Assembly (NCBI GenBank): GCA_015233195.1
Contig: JADFYE010000011.1
Location: 4,472 to 68,471, forward strand
Direction: 5' to 3'
Length of the DNA stretch: 64,000 bases
Source of the DNA: Candidatus Omnitrophota bacterium
GTDB lineage: Bacteria; Omnitrophota; Gorgyraeia; Zapsychrales; Zapsychraceae
Numbering within the stretch: position 1 is the stretch's first letter; every line of letters starts with the position of its first letter. Below the pieces are notes generated by a model. The model was given only the letters and a program-made list of their open reading frames with translations. It searched no databases and was not told the DNA's origin. Both the position numbers and the translations under genes were made by a program. This document shows positions 44,666 to 64,000 of the stretch, one piece after another.

Positions 44666-44667
44666 AA

Positions 44668-48046: not shown

Positions 48047-49153
48047 ATGAACAAAAATGTAACTATCAGAATTTGGGTGTTTTCGATATTGATCATGCTG
48101 TTTGGTCTGGTCGGACTTTATAGCGCGACTTTTAATAACACGCGCGTTCCCCAGAAAATATTTTATGATCAAATGATGTTTACTTTAATCGCTGTGCTTA
48201 TTATGTGGGCATTAAGCAATATTGATTATCGTAAATTTTTTGATTTTGCCTATGTCGTATACGGCGCAAATGTTTTGATGTTATTTTTGGTTTTATTAAC
48301 CGGTCGCAATGCTTTAGGCGCGACTCGCTGGTTTGAAATTGCAGGATTTAGTTTTCAACCTTCTGAATTCATGAAGTTGAGCTTGATCTTGGTTTTGGGC
48401 AGGTATTATTCCAGCCGGTCTTCGAATTATATGTTTGGTTTTTATGGCAGGATTCATTATATTTTTCAGTTTATAGTCGTACCGTTTTTGTTAACAGTTG
48501 TTCCAATGCTATTGATATTCAAACAGCCGGATTTAGGTACCGCGATATTATTGTTTGGGATATTTTTAGCGATTATGTTTGTTAACGGCATACCTTATCG
48601 ATTTATGTTTAGTTTTCTGGGTATATGCGTGTTAGCTATGCCAGTGATGTGGATGTTAATGAAAGATTATCAGAAGTCGCGTTTGTTAGTTTTTTTAAAT
48701 CCCAATATTGATCCTTTAGGGTCAGGATACACTATTATTCAATCGAAGATAGCAGTAGGTTCAGGACAATTATTTGGAAAAGGCTGGTTCGCAGGAACAC
48801 AAAATCAGCTTAATTTTTTACCTGAACGCCATACTGATTTTATTTTTTCAGTAATTGGCGAGGAGTGGGGATTTTTAGGCGGGATATTTTTAATAACATG
48901 TTTTTTTGTTCTGGTCCACGCTGGATTAAGTATAGCGGATAAAGTTACAGATAAGTTCGGGGTTAATGTTACTGTGGGTATTGCTGCTATATTGGCTTTG
49001 CAAGTAGTAATTAACATTGGCATGGTCATGGGCATGTTTCCTATCGTAGGTATTACGCTTCCCTTGGTTAGTTATGGCAGGACTTCATTTTTAACTACAG
49101 CGATTATGTTAGGATTTCTTCTAAATCTGAGTAGAAAAAGATCTTTTCAATAA
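48047..49153 (+). CDS. rodA: Rod shape-determining protein RodA (SEDS family)
   Basis: QPSEFMK, KQPDLGTA, PERHTDFIFSVIGEEWGF, LPLVSYGRTS. Confidence 0.93.
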   Translation: MNKNVTIRIWVFSILIMLFGLVGLYSATFNNTRVPQKIFYDQMMFTLIAVLIMWALSNIDYRKFFDFAYVVYGANVLMLFLVLLTGRNALGATRWFEIAGFSFQPSEFMKLSLILVLGRYYSSRSSNYMFGFYGRIHYIFQFIVVPFLLTVVPMLLIFKQPDLGTAILLFGIFLAIMFVNGIPYRFMFSFLGICVLAMPVMWMLMKDYQKSRLLVFLNPNIDPLGSGYTIIQSKIAVGSGQLFGKGWFAGTQNQLNFLPERHTDFIFSVIGEEWGFLGGIFLITCFFVLVHAGLSIADKVTDKFGVNVTVGIAAILALQVVINIGMVMGMFPIVGITLPLVSYGRTSFLTTAIMLGFLLNLSRKRSFQ

Positions 49154-49231
49154 CTTTAAAATGTTTTTTAGTGCTTTTTGGTTAAGATTAGGTATATTAA
49201 AATAGTTAATATTTATCTATAAAATATTATT

Positions 49232-49678
49232 ATGAAAGAATTTAAAAGAACTAATACAAAAAAACTTGGTGAAGTGCTGGTCGAGCGCGGGGTTATCAAT
49301 CACCAACAGCTTAATAAGGCTCTAGAGATCTGGCAAGCTAAAGGCGGTCTTATGGGCGAAATATTGGTAGAGCTTAAATTTGCCACTGAAGAGGATATTG
49401 CCCAGGCTTTGACATGCCAGTACGGGTTTCCTTTCTTGCCGTTGAATAATTATGAAGTTGATCCTGTGGTTATGAAATCTGTATCGAGGGAATTGTGCGT
49501 CAAATATGTTTTGGTGCCGATAGATAAGATAGGGAAAAGCATCACTTTGGCTATGGCTAATCCATTGAATACCATGGCGATTGAGGAGCTTGAAACCTTA
49601 ACTGAATGTAGTATTCAAGTGTTTGTAAGTACTACTACGGAAATAAAAAAGTTTTTAGAAAAAAATTACATGGAGTGA
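49232..49678 (+). CDS. Stand-alone GspE/MshE N-terminal (MshEN/T2SSE_N) domain protein
   Basis: KLGEVLVERGVINHQQLNKALEIWQ and LMGEILVELKFATEEDIAQALTCQ tandem helices followed by PFLPL...ITLAMANPLN. No ATPase domain. Confidence 0.75.
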   Translation: MKEFKRTNTKKLGEVLVERGVINHQQLNKALEIWQAKGGLMGEILVELKFATEEDIAQALTCQYGFPFLPLNNYEVDPVVMKSVSRELCVKYVLVPIDKIGKSITLAMANPLNTMAIEELETLTECSIQVFVSTTTEIKKFLEKNYME

Positions 49679-49679
49679 T

Positions 49680-51455
49680 ATGGCGTTCTTAAAAGACCGG
49701 ATCAAAGAAATCCTGTTGCGCGATAATCTGCTCTCTGCTGCTGATCTTGAAAAAGCTTTGAATGAACAAGAGCGGAAAGGCGGCGAATTAAGTCGTATCC
49801 TCGTAGATATGAAGTTGATAGACGATGATACTCTCACTAATGTATTAAGCCGCAGTTTAGGTGTTCCTACCATAAGTATTAGCCGGATTAAGATTGATCC
49901 TTCCATAATCAAAATCATACCTAAAGATGTGGTGGTTAAATATCAGATCATGCCGATATCTTTGATCGGCGAGACTTTGACTATTGCTATGGCTGATCCA
50001 TTGAACATTTTTGTGGTGGATAATGTCAAAGCTGTTACTGGATATATCATAAATACCATAATTGCTCGTCGTTCAGAAATAGCCACAGCTATCGATTTAT
50101 ATTATAAAAAAGATGAGCAGTCTAAAGAAGCGGCGCATGAAGAAACGCATGAAGAATCTTTGGATAAGATCAGTGATCTCATGGGTGATATGGAAAACCC
50201 GGATGAGCTGGATGATATAAAATCCGATGAATTTATGGGATCATCTTCCGGAGTAGAAGAAATAAAAGACGAAGCTCCGATCATTCGTTTAACTGATTCG
50301 ATAGTGCGGCAAGCAGTATTGATGAAATCCAGCGACGTATTTATTGAACCTTTAGAACGGGAGATGCGGGTACGTTTGCGGGTTGACGGAATGATCCGGG
50401 AGATAGACCGTTTGCCTAAGGCTATTCTTGCGCCTTTGGTTTCACGCATTAAAGTTATTTCTAATCTTGATATTTCTGAACACCGGTTGCCGCAGGATGG
50501 CAGGTTTAAGATGATAGTTTCAGCTGATAAAGAAGTTGATTTTCGTGTTAATGTTTTGCCTACAGCTTTAGGCGAGAAAGTTTGTTTGCGGGTTTTAGAC
50601 CAGAGCGGGACAGTATTAGACGTTGAAAAATTAGGGTTTGAGCCGAGCTCATTAGAGCGGTTAATAGAGTGTACTAAAAAGCCGCATGGGATGATATTGA
50701 CTTGCGGACCTACGGGAAGCGGAAAGACCACGACTTTATATTCCATTCTTAAACATGTTGATTCACCGGAAAAAAATATTGTTACAGTTGAAGATCCAGT
50801 CGAGTATCAGTTCAAAGGCGCTTGTCAGGTTAATGTTAAACCTGCGATGGGTTTAACCTTTGCTGCTAGTTTGCGTTCAATATTGCGGCAGGATCCGGAT
50901 ATTATTATGATCGGAGAGATCCGGGATGCTGAAACTTTGGATATAGCAGTTAAAGCTGCTTTGACCGGACATTTGGTGCTGAGTTCTTTGCATACGACTA
51001 CAGCTGCCGGATCAGTAGTGCGTATGGTGAATATGGGGGTTGAACCATTTTTAATTTGTTCTTCAGTTTTATGTATTATAGCCCAGCGTCTTTTACGTAA
51101 AGTATGTCAGAATTGTAAAGAACCTTATACTCCACCCGACGCTGTAATTGAAAGAGTTGGTTTGCGGCAGATTTCTCAAGAAAAAACCATTACGCTTTAT
51201 AAAGGTAAAGGCTGTGACCAGTGTTTTAAGAGCGGGTATAAAGGGCGGGTTGGTATCACCGAAATTTTAGTTATAACTCCAGCAGTCAAAGAAGTGATAA
51301 CAGCTATGGCTGGCGAACCTAAGGTTAAAGAAGTTGCGCGGCAGGAAGGAATGATAACTATGCGCGAGGACGCTTTGTATAAAGCGTTGAAAGGACTGAC
51401 TACGCTCGAGGAGGTTTTAAGAATTACAGCACCTGACGAAACATTGAAAAAATAA
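49680..51455 (+). CDS. Type IV pilus / T2SS assembly ATPase (PilB/GspE family), copy 1
   Basis: N-terminal MshEN-like domain, Walker A GPTGSGKTTT, Walker B DPDIIMIGEIRD, His box LSSLHT, tetracysteine CQNC...CDQC. Confidence 0.92.
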   Translation: MAFLKDRIKEILLRDNLLSAADLEKALNEQERKGGELSRILVDMKLIDDDTLTNVLSRSLGVPTISISRIKIDPSIIKIIPKDVVVKYQIMPISLIGETLTIAMADPLNIFVVDNVKAVTGYIINTIIARRSEIATAIDLYYKKDEQSKEAAHEETHEESLDKISDLMGDMENPDELDDIKSDEFMGSSSGVEEIKDEAPIIRLTDSIVRQAVLMKSSDVFIEPLEREMRVRLRVDGMIREIDRLPKAILAPLVSRIKVISNLDISEHRLPQDGRFKMIVSADKEVDFRVNVLPTALGEKVCLRVLDQSGTVLDVEKLGFEPSSLERLIECTKKPHGMILTCGPTGSGKTTTLYSILKHVDSPEKNIVTVEDPVEYQFKGACQVNVKPAMGLTFAASLRSILRQDPDIIMIGEIRDAETLDIAVKAALTGHLVLSSLHTTTAAGSVVRMVNMGVEPFLICSSVLCIIAQRLLRKVCQNCKEPYTPPDAVIERVGLRQISQEKTITLYKGKGCDQCFKSGYKGRVGITEILVITPAVKEVITAMAGEPKVKEVARQEGMITMREDALYKALKGLTTLEEVLRITAPDETLKK

Positions 51456-51458
51456 TTT

Positions 51459-53171
51459 ATGGCGAAGACTGTTAAAGATACAATTTTGGATGGATTAGTC
51501 AATTCCGGGAAGTTTCCTCCCAAGGTATTGGAAGAAGCACGTCTGCTTAATCAGAGAGAGAAAATCCCTTTTGAGAAAGCTTTGATTAAAAAAGGTTTGA
51601 TTACAGAAGAAGATTGGTTATTGCTGCTGGTCGACGAATTAGGTATTCCTTTTGTAAATATAGCTAGGTATAAACTTACACCTTATCTGCAAGAAATCAT
51701 TCCTGAGTCAGTTGCCCGGCAATATAAAATCGTGCCTTTGTCTGATACTCAATTTTCAGTAACAATTGCTACATCTGACCCCTTGAATGTTTATGCCCTC
51801 GATGATTTAAAAAATATTACCGGAAAACGTATTGACATAGTCTTGAATACTGAAACCGAGATCATGAAAAAGATCGATGGTTTTTATGGAGATCCAACCA
51901 AACGTGATGCTCCGGAATTCAAAGCTCAGGACGCTGCTTTAGAAGCCTTTGAGATTGTTTCGCAGAAAGAAGAAGAGGGCGCTTCAACTGATGGGTCGGA
52001 TGAATCGGACAAAGCTCCGATAATACGGATGGTAAATTTGATATTAAAGGAAGCTTTACGTCAACGCGCGTCGGATATACACATTGAACCTATGGAAACT
52101 TGCGTGCGGGTGAGGTACCGTATAGACGGTGTTTTACGGGATGTTTTAACTATTCCTAAAAAGAATCAGAATGCTATGGCTACGCGTATCAAGATCATGT
52201 CGCGTTTGGATATTACGGTAAATCAAATGCCTCAAGATGGACGGTTCAAACTGACTTTAAAAGATAAGAGTGTGGATTTCCGGGTGTCAATATTACCGGC
52301 TACATTCGGACCTAAAGTGGTTATGCGTATTTTGGATCGTTCAAAATTAGCAGTTGGTATAGACGGGTTGGGATTATCGCCTAAGGCTTTGACAGTTATT
52401 AAAGACGGTATTAAAAAACCGTTTGGTATGCTTTTAGTTACTGGTCCTACTGGAAGCGGTAAATCTACAACTTTGTATTCGATTGTGAACGAGCTTAATA
52501 CAGTTGAAAAAAATATTATTACGGTCGAAGATCCGGTTGAGTATTTGCTGGAAGGTTTGACGCAGATACAAGCCATGCCTGAGATTGGGCTGACTTTCGC
52601 TGAAGGCTTACGTTCGATTTTACGTCAAAGTCCGGACATTGTTATGGTCGGGGAAATACGGGACGGTGAAACTGCGGATATTGCTATTAAAGCTTCTTTG
52701 ACCGGTCAATTAGTGTTATCTACTTTGCATACTAATGATGCTCCTGGTGCCTTGACTCGTTTGGTGGATATGGGGGTAGAACCTTTTTTGGTGGCGTCCA
52801 GTCTGGTGCTGGTAACTGCTCAGCGTTTGTGTCGTAAAATATGTCAGCATTGCAAGGCAGAGGTAAAGATCGAAACAGATATTTTAAAACGGATAGGACC
52901 CCTGGTTCCTAAGGGGACAGTTTTTTATCAAGGAAAAGGCTGTGAGTTTTGTAAAAATACCGGATATAACGGGCGCATGTCTGTGACTGAAGTTTTGGAA
53001 GTTGATGATGATGTACGTATGATGTTATTGGAAGGCAAAACTTCTGATGACATAAAGAAATTTGCTTGTGAGCAAAAAGGAATGAAGACTTTGTATCAGG
53101 ACGCCATGGCTAAATGTATAGACGGTCAAACTACTATGGAAGAAGTGTTTAGGATTACAAGTAGTGACTGA
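51459..53171 (+). CDS. Type IV pilus / T2SS assembly ATPase (PilB/GspE family), copy 2
   Basis: Walker A GPTGSGKSTT, SPDIVMVGEIRD, LSTLHT, CQHC...CEFC. 3-nt gap to copy 1. Confidence 0.92.
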   Translation: MAKTVKDTILDGLVNSGKFPPKVLEEARLLNQREKIPFEKALIKKGLITEEDWLLLLVDELGIPFVNIARYKLTPYLQEIIPESVARQYKIVPLSDTQFSVTIATSDPLNVYALDDLKNITGKRIDIVLNTETEIMKKIDGFYGDPTKRDAPEFKAQDAALEAFEIVSQKEEEGASTDGSDESDKAPIIRMVNLILKEALRQRASDIHIEPMETCVRVRYRIDGVLRDVLTIPKKNQNAMATRIKIMSRLDITVNQMPQDGRFKLTLKDKSVDFRVSILPATFGPKVVMRILDRSKLAVGIDGLGLSPKALTVIKDGIKKPFGMLLVTGPTGSGKSTTLYSIVNELNTVEKNIITVEDPVEYLLEGLTQIQAMPEIGLTFAEGLRSILRQSPDIVMVGEIRDGETADIAIKASLTGQLVLSTLHTNDAPGALTRLVDMGVEPFLVASSLVLVTAQRLCRKICQHCKAEVKIETDILKRIGPLVPKGTVFYQGKGCEFCKNTGYNGRMSVTEVLEVDDDVRMMLLEGKTSDDIKKFACEQKGMKTLYQDAMAKCIDGQTTMEEVFRITSSD

Positions 53172-53248
53172 TAAGATTGATAAAGAAACGCTTTTTAAAA
53201 TATGGTTTGATGATAAAATGAATATAAATTATTTTGAGGGGATAGATA

Positions 53249-54451
53249 ATGGCTACTTTTAAGTATGTTGGAAAAGACGCGGAATCAAAAAGTATTACTG
53301 GCAAGATTTCAGCTGATGACCGTAATGCGGTTATTGAAGAGTTGCGTAAGCGCAAACTCACCATTATTTCGGTTACTGAAGTAAAAGATGAAAAAGTTAA
53401 AGCTGGAGCGAGAAAGAAAGTTAAGCCAGAAGAAGTTGTGCTTTTCGCGCGTCAGCTGGCTACCATGGTCGAGGCTGGTATGCCTATATTACAGGGGTTG
53501 AACGCTTTATCGGAGCAGACTACCAATGAAGGATTTAAAAAAGTTTTGACTGAAGTTGAAATGGATATTAAGCATGGCAGCAGTTTATCCTCGTCTTTTG
53601 CTAAACACCCTTATGTTTTTAATAATTTATTCGTTAATTTAGTTAAGGTTGGTGAGACCGGCGGTATTTTAGCTACGGTATTGGACCGGGTTTCAACTTA
53701 CATGGAAAAAACTTTGAGTTTGCAGCGCAAAGTAAAATCCGCATTGGTTTATCCCGCGGTAGTTGTATCAATGGCAGGGATTATAACTATAATTTTGTTG
53801 GTCAAGGTTGTTCCGACATTTTCAGGCATATATTCATCTTTCGGTAAAGAGCTGCCGCCTATGACGCAGGTGTTAGTAAATACTAGTAATTTTTTGCGTT
53901 CATATTTATTGTTGGTTGTTGCTGCTATAGTTGGTTTGATTTTTGCTATGAATCGCTGGCACAAAACTGAAAAAGGAGCGGTTGCTATTGACGGCGCTAT
54001 TTTGCGTATGCCGGTATTTGGTGAACTTTTACGTAAGGTAGCGGTAAGCAGGTTTACTCGGACTTTAGCTACTTTGGTACAGAGCGGTGTTCCTATTTTG
54101 GAATCTTTGAATATTGTGGAAAAAACTATAGGTAACCGGGTGCTTGAGAATGTAATTAAAGATGTTCAAACTAGCGTTCGTCAGGGAGAAAGTTTAGCTG
54201 TTCCTTTAGAAAAAAGTTCGGTTTTCCCTCCAATGGTTACCCGTATGATTTCGATTGGTGAAAAATCCGGTCAAATGGAAAAAATGCTTTTAAAAGTATC
54301 TGAGTTTTATGATGATCAAGTGGATACTGCAGTTGAAGGTTTAACGAGTATGATCGAACCATTAATTATCGGGGTTATGGGTATAGTTATCGGGTTTATT
54401 GTCGTGGCTTTGTTTATGCCAATATTATCAATGTCGCAATTGGTAAGTTAA
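53249..54451 (+). CDS. Type IV pilus / T2SS platform protein (PilC/GspF family)
   Basis: Two T2SSF repeats (FARQLATMVEAGMPIL and FTRTLATLVQSGVPIL), 3 TM segments, 400 aa. Confidence 0.92.
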   Translation: MATFKYVGKDAESKSITGKISADDRNAVIEELRKRKLTIISVTEVKDEKVKAGARKKVKPEEVVLFARQLATMVEAGMPILQGLNALSEQTTNEGFKKVLTEVEMDIKHGSSLSSSFAKHPYVFNNLFVNLVKVGETGGILATVLDRVSTYMEKTLSLQRKVKSALVYPAVVVSMAGIITIILLVKVVPTFSGIYSSFGKELPPMTQVLVNTSNFLRSYLLLVVAAIVGLIFAMNRWHKTEKGAVAIDGAILRMPVFGELLRKVAVSRFTRTLATLVQSGVPILESLNIVEKTIGNRVLENVIKDVQTSVRQGESLAVPLEKSSVFPPMVTRMISIGEKSGQMEKMLLKVSEFYDDQVDTAVEGLTSMIEPLIIGVMGIVIGFIVVALFMPILSMSQLVS

Positions 54452-54453
54452 AC

Positions 54454-55389
54454 ATGTTTAGAAAAATAAATTTAATTTTGATGATGTTTTTGGTCTTGAG
54501 TATCAGTTCGTCTTTTGCTCAAGAAGGGAAAGTTACTGTTCGGGATTGGAACGGTTCTTTAGAAGCGCTAAATGAAAGTTTGAAGAGAGTTTATCAGAAT
54601 AATCAGGCTTTATCAGCCCAGATTGAAATTTTAAATGCTGAGGTTGATAAGTTACAGGCTCAAACGGATGAGTTGGATACGCACGCGGTTGATGATCCGG
54701 GAAATTTTGCTTTTAATAATAAAAAAGAAGTTGAAGTTTTTCAGAAAGAAGCGGATAGAGTTTATCAGAATTTAAAAGATATAGCTAAAGAGCGGCAAGA
54801 ACTGGAAGTAAGATTAATTGAAAAAAATAAAGAAATGGTCCAGCTTAAAGCGGATATTGATAGTCTGTATAAGATAGTGGCAGGGTTAAAAGAAAAAATA
54901 CAATATTCTTCAGAAGGTAAAGACCCGGATATTGAACGACAAAAAAAAGATCTTAATTCCTGGATTAGTGAAACAGAAAAAAGTTGTAATAAGGCGCAAA
55001 ATGAATTAGCTGCGTTACGGAAAAAAAATACGGTTAGTGGAAAGACGAAGAAATTAGAGAAAAGGAAAATTGAACTTCAGAATAAGCTCGAAAAATTAAA
55101 GCAGGAAATAGCAGTATTACAGGAAAATCAGCAAGTTGATGCTGGGTCGTTGAAACTGGAACAGGAATATCAAGATAAGATCAGCAGCATATCTGAAAAT
55201 ATTTCTAAACTTGAAAAACGTCGGGATGAATTGAACGGAGTTTTGGACCATATAGCGGAAAAATTAGATAAAAATAATTTTCATCTGGACCAGGAAAATG
55301 TTGATGTTAAAGAATTAGAGCATAATTTAAAAGTTTTAAAAGATGAAAATATTCAGTTAAAGAATGATTTTAATCGTCTGCAAAAATAA
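54454..55389 (+). CDS. Exported or anchored coiled-coil protein, function unknown
   Basis: Signal/anchor MFRKINLILMMFLVLSISSSFAQ followed by about 280 aa of heptad-rich E/K/Q/L sequence. 2-nt gap after pilC. Confidence 0.65.
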   Translation: MFRKINLILMMFLVLSISSSFAQEGKVTVRDWNGSLEALNESLKRVYQNNQALSAQIEILNAEVDKLQAQTDELDTHAVDDPGNFAFNNKKEVEVFQKEADRVYQNLKDIAKERQELEVRLIEKNKEMVQLKADIDSLYKIVAGLKEKIQYSSEGKDPDIERQKKDLNSWISETEKSCNKAQNELAALRKKNTVSGKTKKLEKRKIELQNKLEKLKQEIAVLQENQQVDAGSLKLEQEYQDKISSISENISKLEKRRDELNGVLDHIAEKLDKNNFHLDQENVDVKELEHNLKVLKDENIQLKNDFNRLQK

Positions 55390-55399
55390 AGGCGCGTAA

Positions 55400-55969
55400 G
55401 TGGCAGATCAGTTTGATCCACAGGTAATGGTTACAGCGTTGATGGGTTATGTTCAGGAAATTTTGGAAACAAAGTGCAAAGCTAAATTATCTGAAAAAGC
55501 CGCTTTTTTGAAAAAGAATATCATTGAGTATGACAGCAAAATGCGGCTTTTTGGTTTGGAAAAATTTGATGGACCTTGTTATGTTGCGGCAATTAATTTA
55601 TATTTGACTAAGCAAAAGTTGGAAAATAAAGATTGCTGCGGTGTGATAGTTTTATTTTTGGATGAAGAAATTGCTGAGCTTTTTGTCCGGGCTTTGCAGC
55701 CAGGGGTGAGTTATGAGGATCCGGATGTCGTTATGGATAATTGCGGGGAATTATGTAATATTATTGCTGTGCAGTTTAAGAATGAAGCTGTGAATTTTGG
55801 ATATGCTAATTTGTTTTTATCCGCTCCGGTTAAAGCGCATAATGATATAATGTATGGAGTAGATTTTCCTTTTGAAGAAGACTTTTATTATGAAATAAGT
55901 TTTAAAGTAAAAAATAGGAAAGCTGTGGTAGTGTCATTTGTGATGGCTAATGTTGCGAATAAAAATTAA
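55400..55969 (+). CDS. CheX/CheC-like CheY-P phosphatase
   Basis: GTG start. Exact match to the CheC/CheX/FliY active-site consensus D/S-x3-E-x2-N-x22-P: D113-NCG-E117-LC-N120-(22 aa)-P143. Confidence 0.65.
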   Translation: MADQFDPQVMVTALMGYVQEILETKCKAKLSEKAAFLKKNIIEYDSKMRLFGLEKFDGPCYVAAINLYLTKQKLENKDCCGVIVLFLDEEIAELFVRALQPGVSYEDPDVVMDNCGELCNIIAVQFKNEAVNFGYANLFLSAPVKAHNDIMYGVDFPFEEDFYYEISFKVKNRKAVVVSFVMANVANKN

Positions 55970-56058
55970 GCGGTAAAAAATTTTTGATTGGCGGTTTGGG
56001 TTATTTTCGTTAGAATTATCAAAAGTCGTTGCATGTTGGTAATTACAGGGGATTTAAA

Positions 56059-56475
56059 ATGGATAAAAATGAACATTCTGATTCAAGTAACCGTCGTCAA
56101 TTTACTCGGGTTGACCGACCGCATTTATTGAAGGTGAAAGTTTTTGATCTTAAGGAACAGGACTCTGTACGCAGGATTGAAGCGGTAACGAGAAATGTTT
56201 CTGCCGGAGGTTTGGCGTTTGAGTCAGAACAGTTTTTTGAAGCTGGTACAGTTTTGGAAATAGAATTAGATGCTCCAGGCTGGGAAAAAATAAAAGGAAT
56301 ATTTGCCGCGGAAGAAAATGAACCTCGTCTTTCTGCGGTAATGCTTTTAGCAAAAGTTATCCGGACCAGGGTGATTGAAGAAGGATTATACGATATTGCT
56401 GTAGCTTTTGTGGGTATAGATGAACGTCACCGTAACGCGTTAATGAAGTATGTAAAAGAGAAAGATAAAGTATAA
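56059..56475 (+). CDS. PilZ-domain protein (c-di-GMP receptor)
   Basis: RRQFTR (RxxxR) and NVSAGG (D/NxSxxG) with the right spacing. Start set at ATG 56059. Confidence 0.8.
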   Translation: MDKNEHSDSSNRRQFTRVDRPHLLKVKVFDLKEQDSVRRIEAVTRNVSAGGLAFESEQFFEAGTVLEIELDAPGWEKIKGIFAAEENEPRLSAVMLLAKVIRTRVIEEGLYDIAVAFVGIDERHRNALMKYVKEKDKV

Positions 56476-56487
56476 GTTGGAGGTAAA

Positions 56488-56916
56488 ATGGCAAAGAATA
56501 CAGTTTTAGTTGTAGATGACGAAGAATATATGGTTAGTCTGCTTAGGCGGGCATTGACTGATGAATCAACAGAAGTTATTGGCGCTTGTAATGGGCTAGA
56601 AGCTTTAGATTTAGTGGTTAACCGGCATGTGGATTTGGTGATTGCAGATAACAATATGCCTAAATTATTGGGTGAAAAACTTTTGGGTGAAGTCAGAAAG
56701 CTTGATCCGTTCATACAGCTAATAATGATTACCGGTTATCCGTCGATGGATGTGATTAATAAAATGTTAGAGATTGGGATATCGGATTTTGTGATCAAAC
56801 CTTTTAATCTGCAGGAATTGCAAGATATGGTAAGAGAAACTTTGCGGCGGGTTGAACGCTGGCGAAAGTTAAGGAAAGATTGGAGCTCAAATCAAAAACC
56901 CACAGGACCCGCATAA
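56488..56916 (+). CDS. Single-domain response regulator (receiver only)
   Basis: VLVVDDEE, LVIADNNMP, MITGY, VIKPF. Confidence 0.88.
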   Translation: MAKNTVLVVDDEEYMVSLLRRALTDESTEVIGACNGLEALDLVVNRHVDLVIADNNMPKLLGEKLLGEVRKLDPFIQLIMITGYPSMDVINKMLEIGISDFVIKPFNLQELQDMVRETLRRVERWRKLRKDWSSNQKPTGPA

Positions 56917-58058
56917 TGGTTTCGATTTTGATCGTAGATGATTCTGATGTGGAATGCACTTTGGTCAGAAGTATTATTGCAAAAAACTTTCCGGATTCGG
57001 TTATTTCGATAGCACATAATGGTCAAGAAGCTTTTAATTTATTAGCAAAATCTCCGGCAGATATTATTTTATCTGATATTATGATGCCGGTTATGGACGG
57101 TCTGGAATTTTGCCGCAAGGTAAAAAATATCCCGTCGCTTAAAGATGTTCCAGTCCTTTTAGTTTCTTCCCTGTACCAATTACATGAAAAAAATGAAGGC
57201 TTTGAAGCTGGGGCTTCAGATTATATTGTCAAGCCGATTGAGACCGACGAAGTAGTGGCGCGGGTCAAAGTGCATCTTAGCATCAAACAAAATCACGACG
57301 AGTTAAAAAAACTTAATAAAGATTTGAAAGCCGCGCAGGAAGCGTTGATCCAGAGCGAAAAAATGTCAGCAGTTGGTTCTTTGGCTGCTGGAATATCGCA
57401 TGAGTTTAATAATATTTTGGGAATGTTAAAAGGTTATGTGCAGTTATCGCAGCAGAAGAGTCGGATCGAAGAAGTAAAATCTTTTTTGTCAGTCATGGTG
57501 GAATTAATAGACCGGGGCGAATTTTTAGTTAGGTCGATGATGGATTTTTCTAAGGGGAGCGTATCAGAAAATAAACAGAAGGTCATGTTACCGGTTTTAA
57601 TCAAGAAAGTTCTGGTATTAATGGAGCAAATGCTGCGTTCCAAGTGTATTGAGATTGAATTTTCAGATCAAACAGTTTTGGAAATAGAGTGTTACCCTAA
57701 TCAGCTTTCTCAAGCTTTTATAAATTTTATAAAAAATGCTATGGAAGCTTGTGAAGAAAGTTCTATAAAGAAAATCAAGATCGAATACGGTAAATTTATT
57801 ATAGGAACAGATGGTAAAGAATCAGCCTATATTCGTTTTATTGATACTGGTTCAGGTATACCTGAAGCAATACGTAACCGCATATTTGATCCGTTCGTAA
57901 CCACTAAAGGGGTTATTTCCGGAGGTGACAAGTCAAAATCCGGCACAGGTTTAGGGTTGACCATAACTTATGATATAATTAAAAAACATAATGGAGATGT
58001 AAAAGTAGAAAAGACCGGTCCAGACGGAACTACGATGTTAGTTTGCCTTCCTCTTTAA
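56916..58058 (+). CDS. Hybrid receiver-histidine kinase (REC, HisKA, HATPase_c), no sensory domain
   Basis: Start at 56916 (TAATG overlap). ILIVDDSD, ILSDIMMPVMDG, KPI. H-box GISHEFNNIL. DTGSGI and GTGLGL. Confidence 0.88.
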   Translation: MVSILIVDDSDVECTLVRSIIAKNFPDSVISIAHNGQEAFNLLAKSPADIILSDIMMPVMDGLEFCRKVKNIPSLKDVPVLLVSSLYQLHEKNEGFEAGASDYIVKPIETDEVVARVKVHLSIKQNHDELKKLNKDLKAAQEALIQSEKMSAVGSLAAGISHEFNNILGMLKGYVQLSQQKSRIEEVKSFLSVMVELIDRGEFLVRSMMDFSKGSVSENKQKVMLPVLIKKVLVLMEQMLRSKCIEIEFSDQTVLEIECYPNQLSQAFINFIKNAMEACEESSIKKIKIEYGKFIIGTDGKESAYIRFIDTGSGIPEAIRNRIFDPFVTTKGVISGGDKSKSGTGLGLTITYDIIKKHNGDVKVEKTGPDGTTMLVCLPL

Positions 58059-58169
58059 TATCTTATCCTTAGCCTTTTATCTTTGACTTATTTTAAAAAT
58101 ATGTTAATGTATTAAATGTACAAAATAAGAAATAAGTAGTAAATATTTTTTATTAATTGGAGGTGCTAC

Positions 58170-58379
58170 ATGGAAAAAGAAAAGTTGCGGGATTTGATCC
58201 ATGATCTTAGTCAGCCTCTTTCTGCCGCATCGGTCAATATTAATGTGGTCGCTTCAATGATAAGTAAAAAATCGGTTAACCTACCTGAAATAAGAAAAAT
58301 CATAAGTGATGTTGAGCGAGAGAATCAGCATGCTTTTGAAATTTTGGAAACAATCAGGACTTACATTAAGGAGAATTAA
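58170..58379 (+). CDS. Stand-alone DHp (HisKA-like dimerisation/phosphoacceptor) protein, 69 aa, no ATPase domain
   Basis: SD GGAGGTG. LIHDLSQPLSAASVNINV resembles the FixL-type H-box (HELNQPL) followed by a second helix. 2-nt gap to the FixJ-type regulator. Confidence 0.6.
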   Translation: MEKEKLRDLIHDLSQPLSAASVNINVVASMISKKSVNLPEIRKIISDVERENQHAFEILETIRTYIKEN

Positions 58380-58381
58380 AA

Positions 58382-59002
58382 ATGGATTTGCGGACAGCGG
58401 TGATTTATGTTGTTGATGATGATGTAGCGATGTTAAAAAGTTTAGAACGCTTGTTAGTCGGAAAAGGATATAAAGTTGAAATATTTTCTTCGGCTCAGGA
58501 GTTTTTGGCGAAAAATAAATATCATCAGCCAGCGTGTATTCTGCTTGACCTAAAAATGCCGGAAATCACTGGTTTGGATTTACAGAAAAAATTAATCATC
58601 CGCGGGGTGCGTTTACCAATAATTTTTGTTTCCGGACAAGGTGATGTTCCCAGCAGTGTTAAAGCCATGAAAGGCGGAGCAGTTGATTTTATTGTTAAAC
58701 CTTTCAAATCTGAAGATTTGCTTTCAGTGGTAGAGCATGCTTTAGAATTGTCAGTTAAGATCCAGAAAGAATCAGCTGAACAGCATAAACTTCAGATGTT
58801 GCTGGATAAAATGACTAAAAGAGAAAAACAGGTGTTTCAATTGGTTATAAAAGGTTTATTAAATAAACAAATTGCGGTTGAATTAGGAATCAGTGAAAAA
58901 ACTGTTAAGGTTCATCGGGGTCGGTTGATGGAAAAATTAAATGTGAATTCTGTTGCGGAATTAGTACGAATGGCAGGTAAGTCCGGTAATTTATCCGAAT
59001 GA
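58382..59002 (+). CDS. FixJ/NarL-family response regulator (REC + LuxR-type HTH)
   Basis: VVDDDVAM, LLDLKMPEITG, FVSGQGD, VKPF. C-terminal TKREKQVFQLVIKGLLNKQIAVELGISEKTVKVHR. Confidence 0.92.
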   Translation: MDLRTAVIYVVDDDVAMLKSLERLLVGKGYKVEIFSSAQEFLAKNKYHQPACILLDLKMPEITGLDLQKKLIIRGVRLPIIFVSGQGDVPSSVKAMKGGAVDFIVKPFKSEDLLSVVEHALELSVKIQKESAEQHKLQMLLDKMTKREKQVFQLVIKGLLNKQIAVELGISEKTVKVHRGRLMEKLNVNSVAELVRMAGKSGNLSE

Positions 59003-59011
59003 AGTGATAGT

Positions 59012-59386
59012 ATGAATAGCGACAAAAAAATATTAATCGTTGACGATGATCGTAATGTTCGTAAATCGACGCGGCGTTTGTTATTTATTAATGGTCTAAT
59101 GAATGTAGCTGAAGCTGGAGGAGTTACCGAGGCAGAAAACATTATCAAGGATTTTTGTCCGGATCTGATATTGGTAGATATAGGAATGCCGGATCGCAAA
59201 GGATACGAATTGTGTATGGATATAAAAGATGATCCAGATAAAAAGAAAATAAAAATTATTGGTATTTCTGGGTACGCCGGTGGAATTGGTGAAGCTTTTA
59301 TGCAGGCGTGCGGAGCGGATTGTTTCTTCGAAAAACCTTTTGACAGCGATCAATTGGTTAGAAAAATTTTTGAACTATTAGGGTGA
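59012..59386 (+). CDS. Single-domain response regulator (receiver only)
   Basis: ILIVDDDRN, ILVDIGMPDRKG, GISGY, EKPF. Confidence 0.88.
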   Translation: MNSDKKILIVDDDRNVRKSTRRLLFINGLMNVAEAGGVTEAENIIKDFCPDLILVDIGMPDRKGYELCMDIKDDPDKKKIKIIGISGYAGGIGEAFMQACGADCFFEKPFDSDQLVRKIFELLG

Positions 59387-59390
59387 CAAT

Positions 59391-59957
59391 ATGGAAAATA
59401 GACCGTTGACTACAGGGGAGATGGCAGAACATTGCCATGTAACTTATCGTACTGTTTTGAAATGGATAGAGGACGGTAAATTAAAAGCTTACCGTACTCC
59501 GGGAAAACACAGCCGAGTGTACGCCGAGGAGTTCGTTAGGTTTTTGCGGGATTATAAAATGCCGATTCCTAATGAATTTAAGGCTTTGGCAGCGGTTAAA
59601 AGGATATTGGTAGTTGATGACGATAAGAATATTACCCGGTCGCTGCAGCGTTTGTTGAAGGGAGCCGGATATAGTGATATTGAATTAGCGTTTGATGGTT
59701 TTGAGGCGGGAAGGAAATTTTTTGAGTTCCAGCCTCATTTAGTTATAGTAGATATTCGTATGCCGGGGATCGATGGATTTCAAGTTGTTGAACATATTTT
59801 GAAATCTCCTCATGGAAAGCAAGTAAAGATAATCGCAATATCCGCGTTTTTTGAAGCAGAAAAGAAAAAATATTTGATCCAGCAAGGTGTAAGTTTTTGT
59901 TTGGATAAACCGTTTGATCCAAAAGAATTGATAGTAAAAATAAAAGAGATAATATGA
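59391..59957 (+). CDS. Excisionase/MerR-type HTH fused N-terminally to a receiver domain
   Basis: LTTGEMAEHCHVTYRTVLKWIEDGKLKAYRTPGKHSRV (excisionase-family HTH) then ILVVDDDKN, VIVDIRMPGIDG, AISAF, LDKPF. Confidence 0.85.
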   Translation: MENRPLTTGEMAEHCHVTYRTVLKWIEDGKLKAYRTPGKHSRVYAEEFVRFLRDYKMPIPNEFKALAAVKRILVVDDDKNITRSLQRLLKGAGYSDIELAFDGFEAGRKFFEFQPHLVIVDIRMPGIDGFQVVEHILKSPHGKQVKIIAISAFFEAEKKKYLIQQGVSFCLDKPFDPKELIVKIKEII

Positions 59958-62746
59958 TCTTTGGATCGCTGTCTCGTAGATTAATATTTTTTATTTTAGC
60001 ATTTTGGGGTCTTAGCATATTTTGTGTAAGCGCTAATGCTGAATATATTGATGATGATGAGGTTGATGCTTCCTCATGTTATCGTATCGGTATTGTTACA
60101 GAGCAGGAAGATATTGATGCGTCAGAACAATGGATGCCGGTTGTAGATTACCTTAATACCAATATTAAAGATCAATGTTTTGCTATCCGCTATTTTAAGC
60201 CTTCTTACAGTTTATCTGCCATAAAAGCCAAAGAAGCTGATTTTTTATTTATGAGTCCAGTAGTCTACTCAGAATTAGAACATCACGTTTTGATAGACAC
60301 CTATTTGAGTATGGAACGTTTACAGGGCGGCATGTATTATTCGCGCAGCGGCGCCACTGTTTTCACTCGTCCGGAACAAAAAGATATTAATGTTTTTAAA
60401 GATTTGAAACATAAAAAAGTAATTGTCTTTAAATCTGAGGATATGCGGGGTGAGTTGGCTTTTGAGCGGGAGTTAGTAAAACTTCATGTTGATCCTAAAA
60501 AAGCATTTAAAAAATATATTTTGACTGAGAATAAAAAAGATATTCTATCTTCAGTTTTACGCAAAGAATATGACGCGGGAGTTTTGGCTACCGGAGATTT
60601 GGAAGATCTGGTGGCTAAAGGGGCTTGTTCTTGGAAGGATTTAAAAATAATCGAACCATATAAAGATTTTCAGATGAAAATGTTTTATGGGGTATCGTTC
60701 CGTTATAGCACTGATCTTTACGCTGATTGGATTTTTGTTTCTATTCGAAATATTCAGTCTCAAATAGTCAGGGATGTGGTTGGGGCGTTATTAAAGATGC
60801 CACCGCATAAGGCTGGTTTTGGCGAAGTTTGGCGTCCAGCATACGATTATCATGATGTTCATGACGCGCTTTGGGACCTAAAACGTGGTAGTCATAATTT
60901 GTGGCATATTCAGAATTCTTTGGCTCGGCTTTGGAGTTCTTATGGATGGTTGATTGTTTTGATATTGTTTATATTTGTGTCAAGCTTGATTTTGGCTATA
61001 TATTTATTAATCAATAATTTCTTATTAAGAAAATCAAAATCGGAATTATCCTACCGGGTATTTTCACAAAAAGAGATTGAAGCCGGGGTTCAGGAGACGG
61101 AAGCCAGGATTGAAGCCATATTGAATGCTATACCTTACGCGGTGATAGGGTTTGAGAATGACACTATAATTTTTGTGAATGGGGCGGTAAAAAAAATCTT
61201 TGGCTGGGATCCGGAAAATTTATTGGGTAAGACTGCTGAAATGCTTTATTCGGGTGAGCATTATATTAATTTAATAAAAGAGATATATTTATCGTTTAAA
61301 AAAGATCAAGTGCTTTGTAAAGAAATAAGTGCTCAAAGAAAAAACGGGGAACACTTTGATTGTTTAGTAAATATTGCGCAGACCAAAACTGTGGGAATTG
61401 ACCATCGCTTTGTCGGGGTGTTTATCGATGTTTCAAATCAGTATCAACAGGAAGAATTGTTAAAGAAACTTTCCAAAGCTGTTGAGCAAAATCCGGTCGG
61501 CGTGTTGATTGTTTCTTATCTTGGCAAGGTCGAATATGTGAATGACAGTTTTGCGCATATAACTGGACTGGAACATTCGCATATTATGAGTTCGTCTGCG
61601 CATAAAATTCTTAGTGAATTATTTTTATATAGTGAAAGTAAAGATTTATGGAATTCTATAGTGACTGCGCAGCTTACCCAAAAAGAATTTTTGACTCAGC
61701 GTAAGAATGGTGAGCAATACTGGGCGGCATTAACGGTTTCTTTGCTTAAAAATTTGGAAGGATCAGTAAGTTATATTGTGTTTAATTGGGATGATATTTC
61801 TGAACGTAAAAAAGCTGAAGATCAGCTTCGTAAAAGTCAGCAGGAAGTAGAACGGGTCAATGCCAGCCTGCTGGATAATGAAAAAGCTTTAAAGACTATG
61901 ATCCAGGATCTGGAATCAACACATAATCAGTTAAAAACTATGCAGACGCAGTTGATTCAGACTGAAAAACTTTCGTCGATCGGGCAATTAGCCGCAGGTA
62001 TAGCGCATGAAATTAATAATCCGATTGCTTTTATTAATAGCAACATGGACGCGTTGGAAAGATATTTAGGAAGTATAAAAAAGATATTTGACGTGTTGCA
62101 CGAGTATGATCGCACTTCTAAAGATGAAGTTGATAAGTTTCATGAAGCGTTTGCAAAAATGAGCAGGATAAAGAATGAGGAAAATATTGATTTTATTTTA
62201 AAAGATATAGATGATGTGATCCATGAATCTAAAGAAGGATTGGAACGGATCAAAAATATTGTAATTGATCTTAAGACTTTCTCGAGGAGAGATGATTCTT
62301 CCCGGGTATTCGCTGACTTGAACCAGATATTAGAAGGAGTTATAAACATTGTCTGGAATGAAATACGATATAAGGCTAAATTGACCAAAAATTTTCAAAA
62401 AATATCATTGGTGAATTGTAATCCTCAGCAGTTGGGTCAGGTATTTATAAATCTTTTAATCAATGCTATTCAGGCAATACCGGAAAAAGGTGAAATAGTT
62501 TTATCAACTTATGAAAAAAATGGGTTTGCAGTAGTTGAAATATCTGATACCGGATCAGGCATACCCGATAATGTGCGGCCATATATTTTTGAGCCTTTTT
62601 TCACTACTAAAAAAGCGGGTGAGAGTACTGGCTTGGGTTTGAGCATAAGTTTAGAAATAATCACTAGGCATCAAGGAAAGATCGACGTGAAAAGTAAAGT
62701 TGGTGAAGGCACTACTTTTTATGTATATTTGCCGCTTTCTAAATAG
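59954..62746 (+). CDS. Sensor histidine kinase with periplasmic PhnD-like solute-binding domain, TM, 2x PAS, HisKA, HATPase_c
   Basis: ATGA overlap. Signal/TM, then YRIGIVTEQ...FLFMSPVVY (phosphonate-binding-protein-like fold), TM WLIVLILFIFVSSLILAIYLLI, PAS x2, H-box GIAHEINNPI, DTGSGI, STGLGL. Confidence 0.88.
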   Translation: MIFGSLSRRLIFFILAFWGLSIFCVSANAEYIDDDEVDASSCYRIGIVTEQEDIDASEQWMPVVDYLNTNIKDQCFAIRYFKPSYSLSAIKAKEADFLFMSPVVYSELEHHVLIDTYLSMERLQGGMYYSRSGATVFTRPEQKDINVFKDLKHKKVIVFKSEDMRGELAFERELVKLHVDPKKAFKKYILTENKKDILSSVLRKEYDAGVLATGDLEDLVAKGACSWKDLKIIEPYKDFQMKMFYGVSFRYSTDLYADWIFVSIRNIQSQIVRDVVGALLKMPPHKAGFGEVWRPAYDYHDVHDALWDLKRGSHNLWHIQNSLARLWSSYGWLIVLILFIFVSSLILAIYLLINNFLLRKSKSELSYRVFSQKEIEAGVQETEARIEAILNAIPYAVIGFENDTIIFVNGAVKKIFGWDPENLLGKTAEMLYSGEHYINLIKEIYLSFKKDQVLCKEISAQRKNGEHFDCLVNIAQTKTVGIDHRFVGVFIDVSNQYQQEELLKKLSKAVEQNPVGVLIVSYLGKVEYVNDSFAHITGLEHSHIMSSSAHKILSELFLYSESKDLWNSIVTAQLTQKEFLTQRKNGEQYWAALTVSLLKNLEGSVSYIVFNWDDISERKKAEDQLRKSQQEVERVNASLLDNEKALKTMIQDLESTHNQLKTMQTQLIQTEKLSSIGQLAAGIAHEINNPIAFINSNMDALERYLGSIKKIFDVLHEYDRTSKDEVDKFHEAFAKMSRIKNEENIDFILKDIDDVIHESKEGLERIKNIVIDLKTFSRRDDSSRVFADLNQILEGVINIVWNEIRYKAKLTKNFQKISLVNCNPQQLGQVFINLLINAIQAIPEKGEIVLSTYEKNGFAVVEISDTGSGIPDNVRPYIFEPFFTTKKAGESTGLGLSISLEIITRHQGKIDVKSKVGEGTTFYVYLPLSK

Positions 62747-62798
62747 GGACAGACGCTATTTATTTGCAAGATACAATAAATAGCGTCTGTCCCTATTT
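62741..62798. repeat. Palindromic repeat family C, copy 2 (24-bp perfect arms, 10-nt loop), overlapping the kinase stop codon
   Basis: AAATAGGGACAGACGCTATTTATT at 62741-62764 and its reverse complement at 62775-62798. The kinase TAG (62744-62746) lies inside the left arm. It probably also acts as the cluster terminator. Confidence 0.88.
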
Positions 62799-62875
62799 AA
62801 AATACTAAGACCAAGGTCGCATTTATCCTGCCTTATATTATTGTTATATTACTCCCTTAATATAGAGGAGTTCAT

Positions 62876-63577
62876 ATGGCTTTTGCATTGTATTTACAAG
62901 ATTTAGTTGTGTCTTTTATGTTGCCGGATAAAAACACGGGGCTAGACCGGATTTTTGTTGATAATTTGAAGCTTGATGCAGGAGAGAAGCTTTGCATATC
63001 CGGACCTTCTGGCTCAGGTAAAAGTGTATTGCTGAATGTACTGGCTGGAGTAAAAAAACCGAACGCCGGACAAGTGTTGTGGGATGGTCTGGATATTACT
63101 CATTTAAGTATTTTTGAACTGGATAAATGGCGTAAACGTAATATAGGTTTTATTTTTCAAGACCTGCATATTTTATCCGGAATGACAGTTTTGCAGAATG
63201 TTTTATTAATGACGGAACAGAATATTAATTCTGTGAATGCTGAAGCGCTTAATTCCCGGGCTAAAATTTTATTACGCGATATGGGGATTTTTTATTTTGA
63301 CCGTCCGGCAAATACGCTTTCCCGAGGAGAACAGCAGCGGGTCGCTATTGTACGCGCGCTTTTAATGTCTCCTCAAGTTTTGATTGCGGATGATCCTTTT
63401 TCCAGCATGGATAATATGACTACGGTTATGGCTTTAAATATTTTATTAAAGCACGTTAAAGAAACCGGTTCTACTTTGATAATTGCCAGCAGTAATCAGA
63501 TTGTCCATCAACGCATTGATCGTGTAGAAATTATGGAAAAAGGCATGTTGCTCCATGAGCACAGTCTTCATACCTAA
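62876..63577 (+). CDS. ABC transporter ATP-binding protein (LolD/FtsE-like), no adjacent permease
   Basis: Walker A GPSGSGKS, signature LSRGEQQR, Walker B LIADDP. SD GAGGAG. Confidence 0.85.
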   Translation: MAFALYLQDLVVSFMLPDKNTGLDRIFVDNLKLDAGEKLCISGPSGSGKSVLLNVLAGVKKPNAGQVLWDGLDITHLSIFELDKWRKRNIGFIFQDLHILSGMTVLQNVLLMTEQNINSVNAEALNSRAKILLRDMGIFYFDRPANTLSRGEQQRVAIVRALLMSPQVLIADDPFSSMDNMTTVMALNILLKHVKETGSTLIIASSNQIVHQRIDRVEIMEKGMLLHEHSLHT

Positions 63578-63672
63578 TAAAAACTAATTCTTAACCCTTC
63601 CCTTGTGTTAAATTCAATATTACAATACTCTAAATTTATTAAATTTTAATTTTATTATTAGGAGGAAGGTTA

Positions 63673-64000
63673 ATGTCATCTAAATTATCAGTTTGGTTTA
63701 CAGCCATGCGTCCATTTTCGTTTACAGCGTCGATTATGCCGGTATTAATTGGCATCGCGTTTGTGTTTGGACGGGGATTATCAGTAGATGGCTGGTCAGC
63801 TTTATGTTTTCTTTTGTCTGCAGTGTGCATTCATGCTGGAACAAATTTGATTAATGATTATTATGATTTTATTTCCGGAGTGGATACAAAAAATAAAATG
63901 GGGCTAAGCGGTGCTTTAACTTCTGGCAGATTGACTCCGGAACAGATCCGTAAGGCAGGATGGATTATGTTTGGTTTAGGATTTTTATTCGGGATTTATT
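63673..64000 (+). CDS. menA: UbiA-family prenyltransferase, probably 1,4-dihydroxy-2-naphthoate polyprenyltransferase, 3'-truncated by window edge
   Basis: Not in the ORF track because it is open-ended. SD AGGAGGAAGG. Own translation MSSKLSVWFTAMRPFSFTASIMPVLIG...HAGTNLINDYYDFISGVD contains the NDYxD prenyl-diphosphate motif. Confidence 0.75.
   Translation, partial: MSSKLSVWFTAMRPFSFTASIMPVLIGIAFVFGRGLSVDGWSALCFLLSAVCIHAGTNLINDYYDFISGVDTKNKMGLSGALTSGRLTPEQIRKAGWIMFGLGFLFGIY

Follow-up and report, generated by a model that had tools for sequence, protein, structure and literature searches.

CheX-like, PilZ and two-component genes behind a pilB-pilB-pilC operon in an Omnitrophota bacterium: a possible chemosensory remnant beside an apparently separate two-component unit

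We analysed a run of nine genes at positions 55400-62746 of a 64-kb stretch of DNA (the window), which is a single stretch of the incomplete metagenome-assembled genome (MAG) of a Candidatus Omnitrophota bacterium. All nine genes are tightly packed on the + strand, and they encode a CheX-like protein, a PilZ protein and seven two-component proteins. Our favoured explanation, which we give a probability of about one in two, is that the region consists of two adjacent signalling modules, A and B, behind a PilB-PilB-PilC operon. Module A (55400-58058) would be the remnant of a Che-type cluster, with a CheX phosphatase, a PilZ receptor, the single-domain receiver REC142 and a REC-HisKA-HATPase kinase, from which the che core was removed in three clean blocks. 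Module B (58170-62746) would be a two-component unit of the ordinary kind, with several regulators, a promoter of its own and a transcriptional output. Taken as a whole, the region resembles a reduced form of a type of system that is already known, not a new system. Two things are, in our view, genuinely new: the clean loss of the che core with CheX, PilZ, a CheY-like receiver and a REC-kinase kept beside pilB-pilB-pilC, and a subfamily of CheX-like proteins of ~190 aa that seems specific to Omnitrophota and has an active site that tracks receiver adjacency.

Module A and the chemosensory genes of a sister species

The closest relative is Omnitrophota nDJH6bin5, whose contig JADFYJ010000014 (loci L001/L006 and L030 in our comparison) carries the genes of the window with a chemosensory pathway between them. 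Its order is RodA, PMT/TPR protein, MshEN, PilB, PilB, PilC, coiled-coil, CheX, PilZ-a, CheW and PilZ-b, then CheV, CheR, CheB, REC, Hpt, CheA, CheD, CheX2 and REC, and then REC-HK (a receiver-kinase), a 69-aa open reading frame (ORF), REC-GerE, HTH_17-REC and a PhnD-PAS kinase, followed by unrelated genes. All core parts of a Che pathway except a methyl-accepting chemotaxis protein (MCP) are present at this locus. Three blocks of it are missing from the window: PilZ-a and CheW; CheV, CheR and CheB; and Hpt, CheA, CheD, CheX2 and REC. Because the relative interleaves these che genes in an otherwise identical order, we read the window as a chemosensory cluster minus its CheA core.

REC124 excepted, the proteins of the window pair one-to-one with those of the relative, at identities that vary along the region. 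In module A, the CheX-like protein (55400-55969) is 61% identical to its orthologue, the PilZ protein (56059-56475) is 72% identical to PilZ-b (72-74%), REC142 (56488-56916) is 68% identical to the REC which follows CheB, between CheB and Hpt-CheA in L001, and the REC-kinase (56916-58058) is 62% identical to a 378-aa orthologue in L001/L030. Upstream, the MshEN protein, both PilB proteins and PilC are 85-88% identical and the coiled-coil protein 52%. In module B, identity is 57% for the 69-aa DHp protein, 75% for REC-GerE, 77% for HTH-REC and 59% for the PhnD-PAS kinase (against a 913-aa orthologue in L030).

The source being a MAG, the missing core could in principle be an artefact of assembly or binning. 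We consider this very improbable: three separate blocks are gone, the junctions are compact (gaps of 12-89 nt or a 1-nt overlap) with intact ORFs and ribosome-binding sites, and the flanking genes are just 59-88% identical to those of the relative, so the window is not a chimera of the relative's genome.

Loss in the window is also more parsimonious than gain in the relative, because more distant relatives (L005, L007/L033, L031 and L034) have the CheX-like gene embedded in large che superclusters. A place inside a che cluster is accordingly the older state. A typical supercluster order is CheW-CheA-...-CheR-CheB-CheX-REC-CheX'-Hpt-REC-REC/HK-REC142-like-CheA2-CheD/REC. In L005, L007/L033 and L034, the REC-HK gene adjoins a REC142-like receiver, as in the window, and the short L031 contig stops before that position. 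At another locus, L055, receivers of the REC142 family lie between CheB and Hpt-CheA.

Pfam searches and tblastn with probes found no signal for CheA, CheW, CheR, CheB methylesterase, CheD or MCP in the 64 kb. This agrees with an earlier interpretation made from the DNA letters alone (the sequence-only reading), which had listed CheA, CheW, MCP, CheB and CheR as absent. Since CheA, CheW and MCP are absent from the window, module A fails as a Che pathway. It might, of course, serve a CheA pathway encoded elsewhere, with REC142 and CheX189 (the 189-aa CheX-like protein) being ordinary chemotaxis accessories that lie apart from their core, in which case nothing here would operate without CheA. 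We view this as possible but improbable. Just one 64-kb window of a MAG is visible, Omnitrophota relatives often hold several CheA genes per cluster (L005, L007, L034) and the REC142 orthologues adjoin CheA in L001 and L055, all of which would suit a distant CheA. A search with the relative's CheA, however, found nothing above 59% identity among 5.8 billion proteins, a collection that includes this MAG's own, and the two closest matches that were traced (55% and 59% identical) belong to other assemblies. The REC-kinase that was retained is also translationally coupled to REC142, and a sister clade of the CheX-like family pairs with non-CheA kinases. The search result is consistent with a real loss, but the incomplete genome may still have a paralogous CheA elsewhere, which is a point against our reading. 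The CheA of the relatives is itself split in two, with Hpt on one ORF (318 or 444 aa) and dimerisation-ATPase-CheW on another (465 or 488 aa), at 15336-17714 of L001 (equal to 3272-5650 of L030) and at 1543-4363 of L055.

The CheX-like gene of module A starts with GTG and encodes a 189-aa putative receiver phosphatase. ATG 56059 and ATG 56916 are the likely starts of the PilZ gene (138 aa) and the REC-kinase gene (380 aa), because the resulting lengths agree with those of the relative's orthologues (140 and 378 aa); the ORFs themselves open at TTG 56029 and at 56880. REC142, a CheY-like orphan (Pfam Response_reg 88.6 bits), has equivalents of D12/D13/D57/T87/K109. Its stop codon overlaps the start of the REC-kinase (Pfam REC 82.4, HisKA 34.3 and HATPase_c 70.5 bits) in the sequence TAATG at 56914-56918.

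Under our favoured explanation, the REC-kinase would now phosphorylate REC142, to which it is translationally coupled, and CheX189 would dephosphorylate either REC142 or the kinase's own receiver. The PilZ protein would tune CheX (by analogy with PlzC-CheX, discussed below) or the ATPases in response to cyclic di-GMP (c-di-GMP), alongside the MshEN domains of a stand-alone protein and of PilB1, and the output of the module would be the activity of the upstream PilB/PilC machine. A stronger version of this idea is that CheX and a CheY-like receiver, uncoupled from CheA and rewired to a REC-HisKA kinase, form together with PilZ and MshEN a minimal methylation-free controller acting directly on the paired PilB ATPases; we hold this version only tentatively, as rather unlikely.

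The CheX-like protein and its subfamily

The 189-aa protein, which is identical to hypothetical protein HQL25_05400 of a Candidatus Omnitrophica MAG, is hard to place by sequence. Its Pfam CheX (PF13690) score of 26.1 bits is just below the gathering score of 27 bits, it has no NCBIfam match, phmmer found no match among PDB sequences and even the family profile reaches just E = 0.009 against the PDB. A confident AlphaFold2 model built with seven homologues (predicted local distance difference test 79.6, predicted template-modelling score 0.80) was compared to the PDB with Foldseek, and the best 13 matches were all CheX or CheC-like (E 5e-8 to 2e-6), followed by FliY, FliM-middle and CheC. Among them are 1SQU/1XKO of T. 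maritima, 3HM4 of Desulfovibrio and 3HZH, a CheX-CheY3 complex of Borrelia, and template-modelling scores against CheX structures reach 0.73 when normalised to the target.

The protein also matches D-x3-E-x2-N-x22-P, the CheC/CheX/FliY motif, exactly and in a single copy (D113, E117, N120, P143), as the sequence-only reading had stated. The family profile aligns its GELCN (E117, N120) with GELGN of T. maritima CheX (1SQU/1XKO), whose Glu and Asn we take to be the catalytic residues. The fold proposed in that reading is thus matched by the model, with E117 and N120 in the expected places. Compared to the T. maritima and B. burgdorferi CheX proteins, the window protein shares the fold and the single site on a long helix; it differs in being ~35-40 aa longer, just 12-16% identical to solved CheX structures, restricted to Omnitrophota among the scanned genomes and without a CheA nearby. 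The additional length is a segment conserved in the subfamily (IEY..R.R..GL.KF) which canonical CheX does not have. By its modelled fold, the protein is a structural member of the CheX class with its motif intact, on a remote branch and an outlier in sequence.

An exhaustive hidden Markov model search of 1.84 billion representatives found only 218 proteins of this kind, nearly all ~190 aa long. In the genomes scanned, all 24 loci of the subfamily belong to Omnitrophota, five of them under the deposited name "uncultured Planctomycetales" and one simply under "bacterium". For the genome and metagenome scans together, we called a CheX-like gene receiver-linked if a receiver gene lay within 1.5 kb of it, and sequences were collapsed at >=90% identity into 34 lineages, of which 32 could be scored. 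The N120 equivalent is Asn in 17/17 receiver-linked lineages versus 2/15 unlinked ones (Fisher p = 3e-7, a value not corrected for shared ancestry). This pattern fits a phosphatase that would act on neighbouring receivers, as the sequence-only reading had supposed for the receivers next to the window gene.

An alternative, which we consider quite unlikely, is that the 189-aa protein is a CheX-fold scaffold or binding protein with no phosphatase activity, and that its place beside receivers is a historical leftover. The extra segment foreign to canonical CheX would suit such a protein, as would ~13 lineages that keep the gene among housekeeping genes with no receiver nearby. The surroundings of these unlinked genes are conserved: radical SAM, Exo_endo_phos and CBS genes precede them, and either isochorismatase and acetyl-CoA synthetase genes or MoeA/MobA follow. 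D, E and N are retained, by contrast, in the window protein and in every close relative of it; Asn is present in every receiver-adjacent lineage; and a fusion of the two proteins exists, a 337-aa ORF at 9116-10129 of L025 with a CheX-like N-terminus (phmmer 77 bits to the window protein) joined to a REC domain (Pfam, residues 225-333).

Several observations weigh against reading the protein as an active phosphatase of REC142. The best-conserved residues of the subfamily (R49, K55, F56, G81, G134, S141, G153 and E165) lie outside the active site, the whole motif is kept in ~30/118 full-length members, and about half of the members are without E117 or N120. The correlation between Asn and receiver adjacency may reflect few independent events. 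In one receiver-linked clade (L021 at 6584-9533, L024, L045 and L048), Thr replaces the catalytic Glu (D-T-N-F), so linkage to a receiver does not always mean an intact site. Lastly, the receiver encoded after the CheX-like gene in relatives has its best match in the window in the N-terminal REC of the kinase (32-36%), ahead of REC142, which makes the substrate of CheX189 uncertain. For the proposal that CheX189 acts on local receivers, the Asn pattern and the L025 fusion give indirect support.

The same clade is informative about kinases. Its CheX-like gene has receiver genes on both sides, with an Hpt-HisKA-HATPase-REC kinase gene and a REC-HD-GYP gene next to it, and because this kinase is not CheA, operation without CheA recurs in the CheX-like family. 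Pairing of the subfamily with non-CheA kinases and c-di-GMP enzymes is, by gene neighbourhood, apparently not unique to the window.

Lone CheX-like genes, at around position 10000 of their loci, were seen in L009, L010, L012, L013, L015-L017, L019, L022 and L023, and most of them encode K, S, Q or E in place of the catalytic Asn. MreB and MreC were considered as conserved upstream neighbours of these orphan genes and ruled out by BLAST, the Pfam assignments being the radical SAM, Exo_endo_phos and CBS families named above.

Module B and transcription of the region

The five genes of module B begin with a stand-alone DHp protein of 69 aa (58170-58379; weak Pfam HisKA, 17.6 bits), which has an H-box, IHDLSQPL, and no ATPase domain. 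It is followed by a FixJ/NarL-type REC-GerE response regulator (58382-59002; REC 91.8 and GerE 80.8 bits), the single-domain receiver REC124 (59012-59386; REC 75 bits), an HTH_17-REC response regulator (59391-59957; HTH_17 37.7 and REC 82.2 bits) and a 930-aa PhnD-like sensor kinase with two PAS domains (59954-62746; Phosphonate-bd 71, PAS_9 79.1, HATPase_c 86.7 and HisKA 24 bits), the last two genes overlapping in ATGA at 59954-59957. Pfam thereby bears out the domain order given in the sequence-only reading, from CheX to the PhnD-like kinase. Its count of five receiver domains is also correct, and all five are complete, with the acidic pair (DD), phospho-Asp, T/S and K. Its description of a nine-gene phosphorelay set in addition to CheX and PilZ is not, as the region has nine genes in total and seven of them are two-component genes.

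In the PhnD-like kinase, the Phosphonate-bd domain (residues 45-284), taken to be periplasmic, lies between an N-terminal hydrophobic segment and a transmembrane segment, the kinase part behind it is cytoplasmic, and the H-box AHEINNP is at residue 685. Sensor kinases with a periplasmic PhnD-like binding domain are known as the TtrS/ThsS type. The window kinase shares their Phosphonate-bd layout and partially matches the TtrS model (132 bits versus a cut-off of 750), and it differs from them in its two PAS domains and its set of regulators. We propose that this solute-sensing PAS kinase would feed the FixJ/NarL-type regulator, the HTH_17-REC protein and REC124 as a spare receiver. The 69-aa DHp protein has a 57% identical, 69-aa orthologue at the same position in L030, with HDLSQPL invariant and the His conserved, so it could be a phosphotransfer protein; in module B it would be a phosphotransfer or phosphatase accessory. 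REC124 has no orthologue in L030, where it comes closest to the receiver of the HTH-REC protein (39.5%), and by this comparison it looks like a recent local duplication of the receiver domain of the adjacent HTH_17-REC gene.

The boundary between the modules is an AT-rich intergenic region of 111 nt (58059-58169) ahead of the DHp gene, in which a promoter-like TTGACT-16-TAATGT can be read directly. It holds a block, TATGTTAATGTA plus CAAAATAAGAAA, that is shared with L030, although the proteins encoded by the flanking sequence have only ~60% identity. The statement that all genes are on the + strand with short gaps or overlaps (TAATG, ATGA) therefore holds for the strand and the overlaps, which were read directly, and fails for this gap. 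At the other end of the region, a perfect 25-bp hairpin (62740-62799) lies over the stop codon of the PhnD-like kinase and is a probable transcription-unit end; the 151 nt that hold it (62730-62880) have a minimum free energy of -52.3 kcal/mol (z = -8.09). We infer that the pil genes read through into CheX-PilZ-REC-REC/HK, that an internal promoter serves the last five genes and that transcription terminates at 62800. Those five genes have the look of a transcriptional two-component unit that is separate from module A. Scans for consensus promoters and terminators, on the other hand, performed no better than on shuffled sequence, so the division into two transcription units depends on a single conserved block, which counts against it.

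The sequence-only reading had treated the region as one integrated, branched phosphorelay, in which both kinases feed all five receivers, CheX resets the single-domain ones, and these together with PilZ gate PilB/PilC. We judge this unlikely. In its favour, the genes are co-directional and, bar the 111-nt gap, are separated by no more than 12 nt (with PilZ starting at TTG 56029) or 89 nt (ATG 56059); that gap (58050-58172 was folded) has no significant fold (z = -0.96) or other terminator-like structure, leaving the strong hairpin after the last kinase as the only one; and the sister species retains the whole order except REC124. In that same species, however, ~8 kb of che genes part the two halves and neither is disturbed, and the conserved promoter-like block lies ahead of the DHp gene. 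Two module B regulators have DNA-binding domains (GerE and HTH_17), and nothing ties module B to the pilus. Pfam found no HPt domain among the nine genes, and the hybrid kinase carries its REC at the N-terminus, an arrangement that is probably not a classical His-Asp-His-Asp relay. Clustering as such is usual in this genome: the window contains another dense group of two-component genes at 75-9731 (GAF-PAS kinase, REC, REC, desulfoferrodoxin, hemerythrin, DUF6600, DUF4118-PAS kinase, REC, REC-PAS kinase and REC), which suggests redox or oxygen sensing and makes long runs of receivers a trait of the genome. We therefore keep to two modules and do not adopt the single nine-gene relay.

The hairpin at 62740-62799 is one of two copies in the window of a ~60-nt perfect palindrome (TAAATAGGGACAGACGCTATTTATT ... 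AATAAATAGCGTCTGTCCCTATTTA). The second copy (37706-37770) sits in frame within a 435-aa EPSP-synthase-family ORF (37075-38382) and leaves its reading frame unbroken. Searches for the palindrome arms gave four matches where 0 are expected by chance, and the element recalls palindromic elements that insert into coding sequence. A search of 46800-64000 with Rfam found no riboswitch or other RNA, just chance matches to microRNA-like families on the hairpin.

c-di-GMP receptors, the pilus-type genes and known systems

Directly upstream of module A, also on the + strand and with gaps of 1-77 nt, are five genes. A 148-aa MshEN-only protein (49232-49678; Pfam MshEN 63.3 bits), a putative c-di-GMP receptor, corresponds in position to an L001 orthologue that is 85% identical. 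It is followed by two PilB/GspE-type ATPases, PilB1 with an N-terminal MshEN domain (49680-51455; Pfam T2SSE 454.7 bits plus MshEN; 88% identical to L001) and PilB2 (51459-53171; T2SSE 438.1 bits plus MshEN; 87%), by a PilC/GspF platform protein (53249-54451; T2SSF 220.6 bits in two stretches; 87.5%) and by a 311-aa coiled-coil protein with a hydrophobic N-terminus (54454-55389), which has weak coiled-coil-type matches only and is always encoded between PilC and CheX, as is its orthologue in L001 (52% identical).

The c-di-GMP side of the region is supported by two kinds of receptor. The PilZ protein scores 40.3 bits against PF07238 (cut-off 22.5) and contains both RQFTR (RxxxR) and NVSAGG (NxSxxG), the two motifs that the sequence-only reading had named, and it looks competent for c-di-GMP binding. 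The NCBIfam c-di-GMP_motif model NF053729 (cut-off 38) matches the stand-alone MshEN protein (59 bits) and PilB1 (43.7 bits); PilB2 has no match to it, and a strict 24-residue MshEN regular expression matched 0/3 MshEN N-termini.

"Pilus motor" is a reasonable label for these genes, inferred from ATPase and platform genes only. PilB1 scores 644 bits with the PilB model TIGR02538, below its cut-off of 675.65, and PilB2 scores 605.7 bits as PilB and 594.6 as GspE; the ATPases score nearly alike as PilB and GspE, under both equivalog cut-offs. No PilT and no PilG/PilH-type assignment is visible in the window. Three further points count against a pilus output for module A: no prepilin-type motif was found anywhere in the window or in L001/L030, the window has no pilin or PilMNOPQ genes, and gene order alone links modules A and B to the PilB/PilC proteins. 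Genes for pilins may sit in another part of the genome.

A CheX-like gene has PilB/PilC genes no more than 10 kb away in three places only. The first is the window, together with its sister species. In the second, L026/L027, REC-CheX-REC lies ~3 kb upstream of RodA-MshEN-PilB-PilB-MshEN-PilC, and in the third, L025, the PilB-like genes are only distantly related. No other locus that pairs PilB/PilC with a CheX-like gene came from the metagenome scan. The synteny with PilB-PilB-PilC expected by the sequence-only reading is therefore seen in the sister species and is not a family trait, being looser in L026/L027 and replaced by che superclusters or housekeeping genes at more distant loci. MshEN-PilB-PilB-PilC directly follows rodA in three Omnitrophota lineages (window 42736-54451; L001 48-8934; L026/L027 13680-20518). 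In the window, it closes a cell-shape run of mreB-mreC-(mreD)-pbp2-x-rodA, and in L026/L027 a second small MshEN gene stands ahead of PilC.

The wider setting of these genes is a stretch of low G+C (35-40%) with nearly all genes on the + strand. The upstream order is MreB, MreC, a 160-aa ORF, PBP2, a 282-aa ORF, RodA, MshEN, PilB, PilB, PilC and coiled-coil. The 282-aa ORF between PBP2 and RodA (47093-47941) has no Pfam family at E 0.01 and no NCBIfam match, and the ORFs at 31560-36002 (1480 aa), 21283-22944 (553 aa) and 36080-37075 (331 aa) have no Pfam family at E <= 1e-4.

Pil-Chp of Pseudomonas and Frz of Myxococcus are Che-type systems which control type IV pili or pilus-linked outputs. 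Dif, also of Myxococcus, includes a CheC-like phosphatase, DifG (PMC4671073). Module A resembles these systems in having CheY-like receivers and a CheC/CheX-type phosphatase together with pilus-type genes. It differs from them in having no CheA, CheW, CheR, CheB or MCP, and a conventional REC-HisKA protein is its sole kinase. In V. cholerae, the PilZ protein PlzC controls the activity of CheX on CheY-P (PMC12799141). The window likewise has a PilZ gene directly after the CheX-like gene, as does the relative, but its PilZ protein is a single domain of 138 aa and its neighbours are PilB/PilC genes. On PilB-type ATPases, MshEN serves as the receptor for c-di-GMP (PMC5013675), and the MshE-type motif model recognises both the free 148-aa protein and PilB1; the window differs from the MshE/PilB case in having a free-standing MshEN protein before two paralogous ATPases, the second of which does not have the motif. 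The sequence-only reading had known of no described model for this combination of genes. That is not borne out, as this very locus holds the complete CheA/W/V/R/B/D set in the relative, and Che-type pilus-linked systems, a PilZ-CheX link, MshEN-PilB receptors and kinases with PhnD-like sensor domains have all been described.

These results do not overturn current models, and the organism is uncultured. For the CheX-like family, the decay of the active site in members with no receiver nearby offers a comparative handle on which of them are enzymes. With its PilZ gene beside the CheX-like gene, the window supplies another gene-neighbourhood case, independent of the first, for the link between PilZ and CheX that was reported in Vibrio in 2026 (PMC12799141). 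If the rewiring of module A is real, it would be a natural case of a chemosensory output module outliving its sensory core, and it would bear on the evolution of "alternative cellular function" Che systems and of CheY-like pilus regulators. If our explanation is true, then a chemosensory pathway can lose its CheA/MCP core yet keep a fast-reset CheY/CheX pair under the control of an ordinary kinase.

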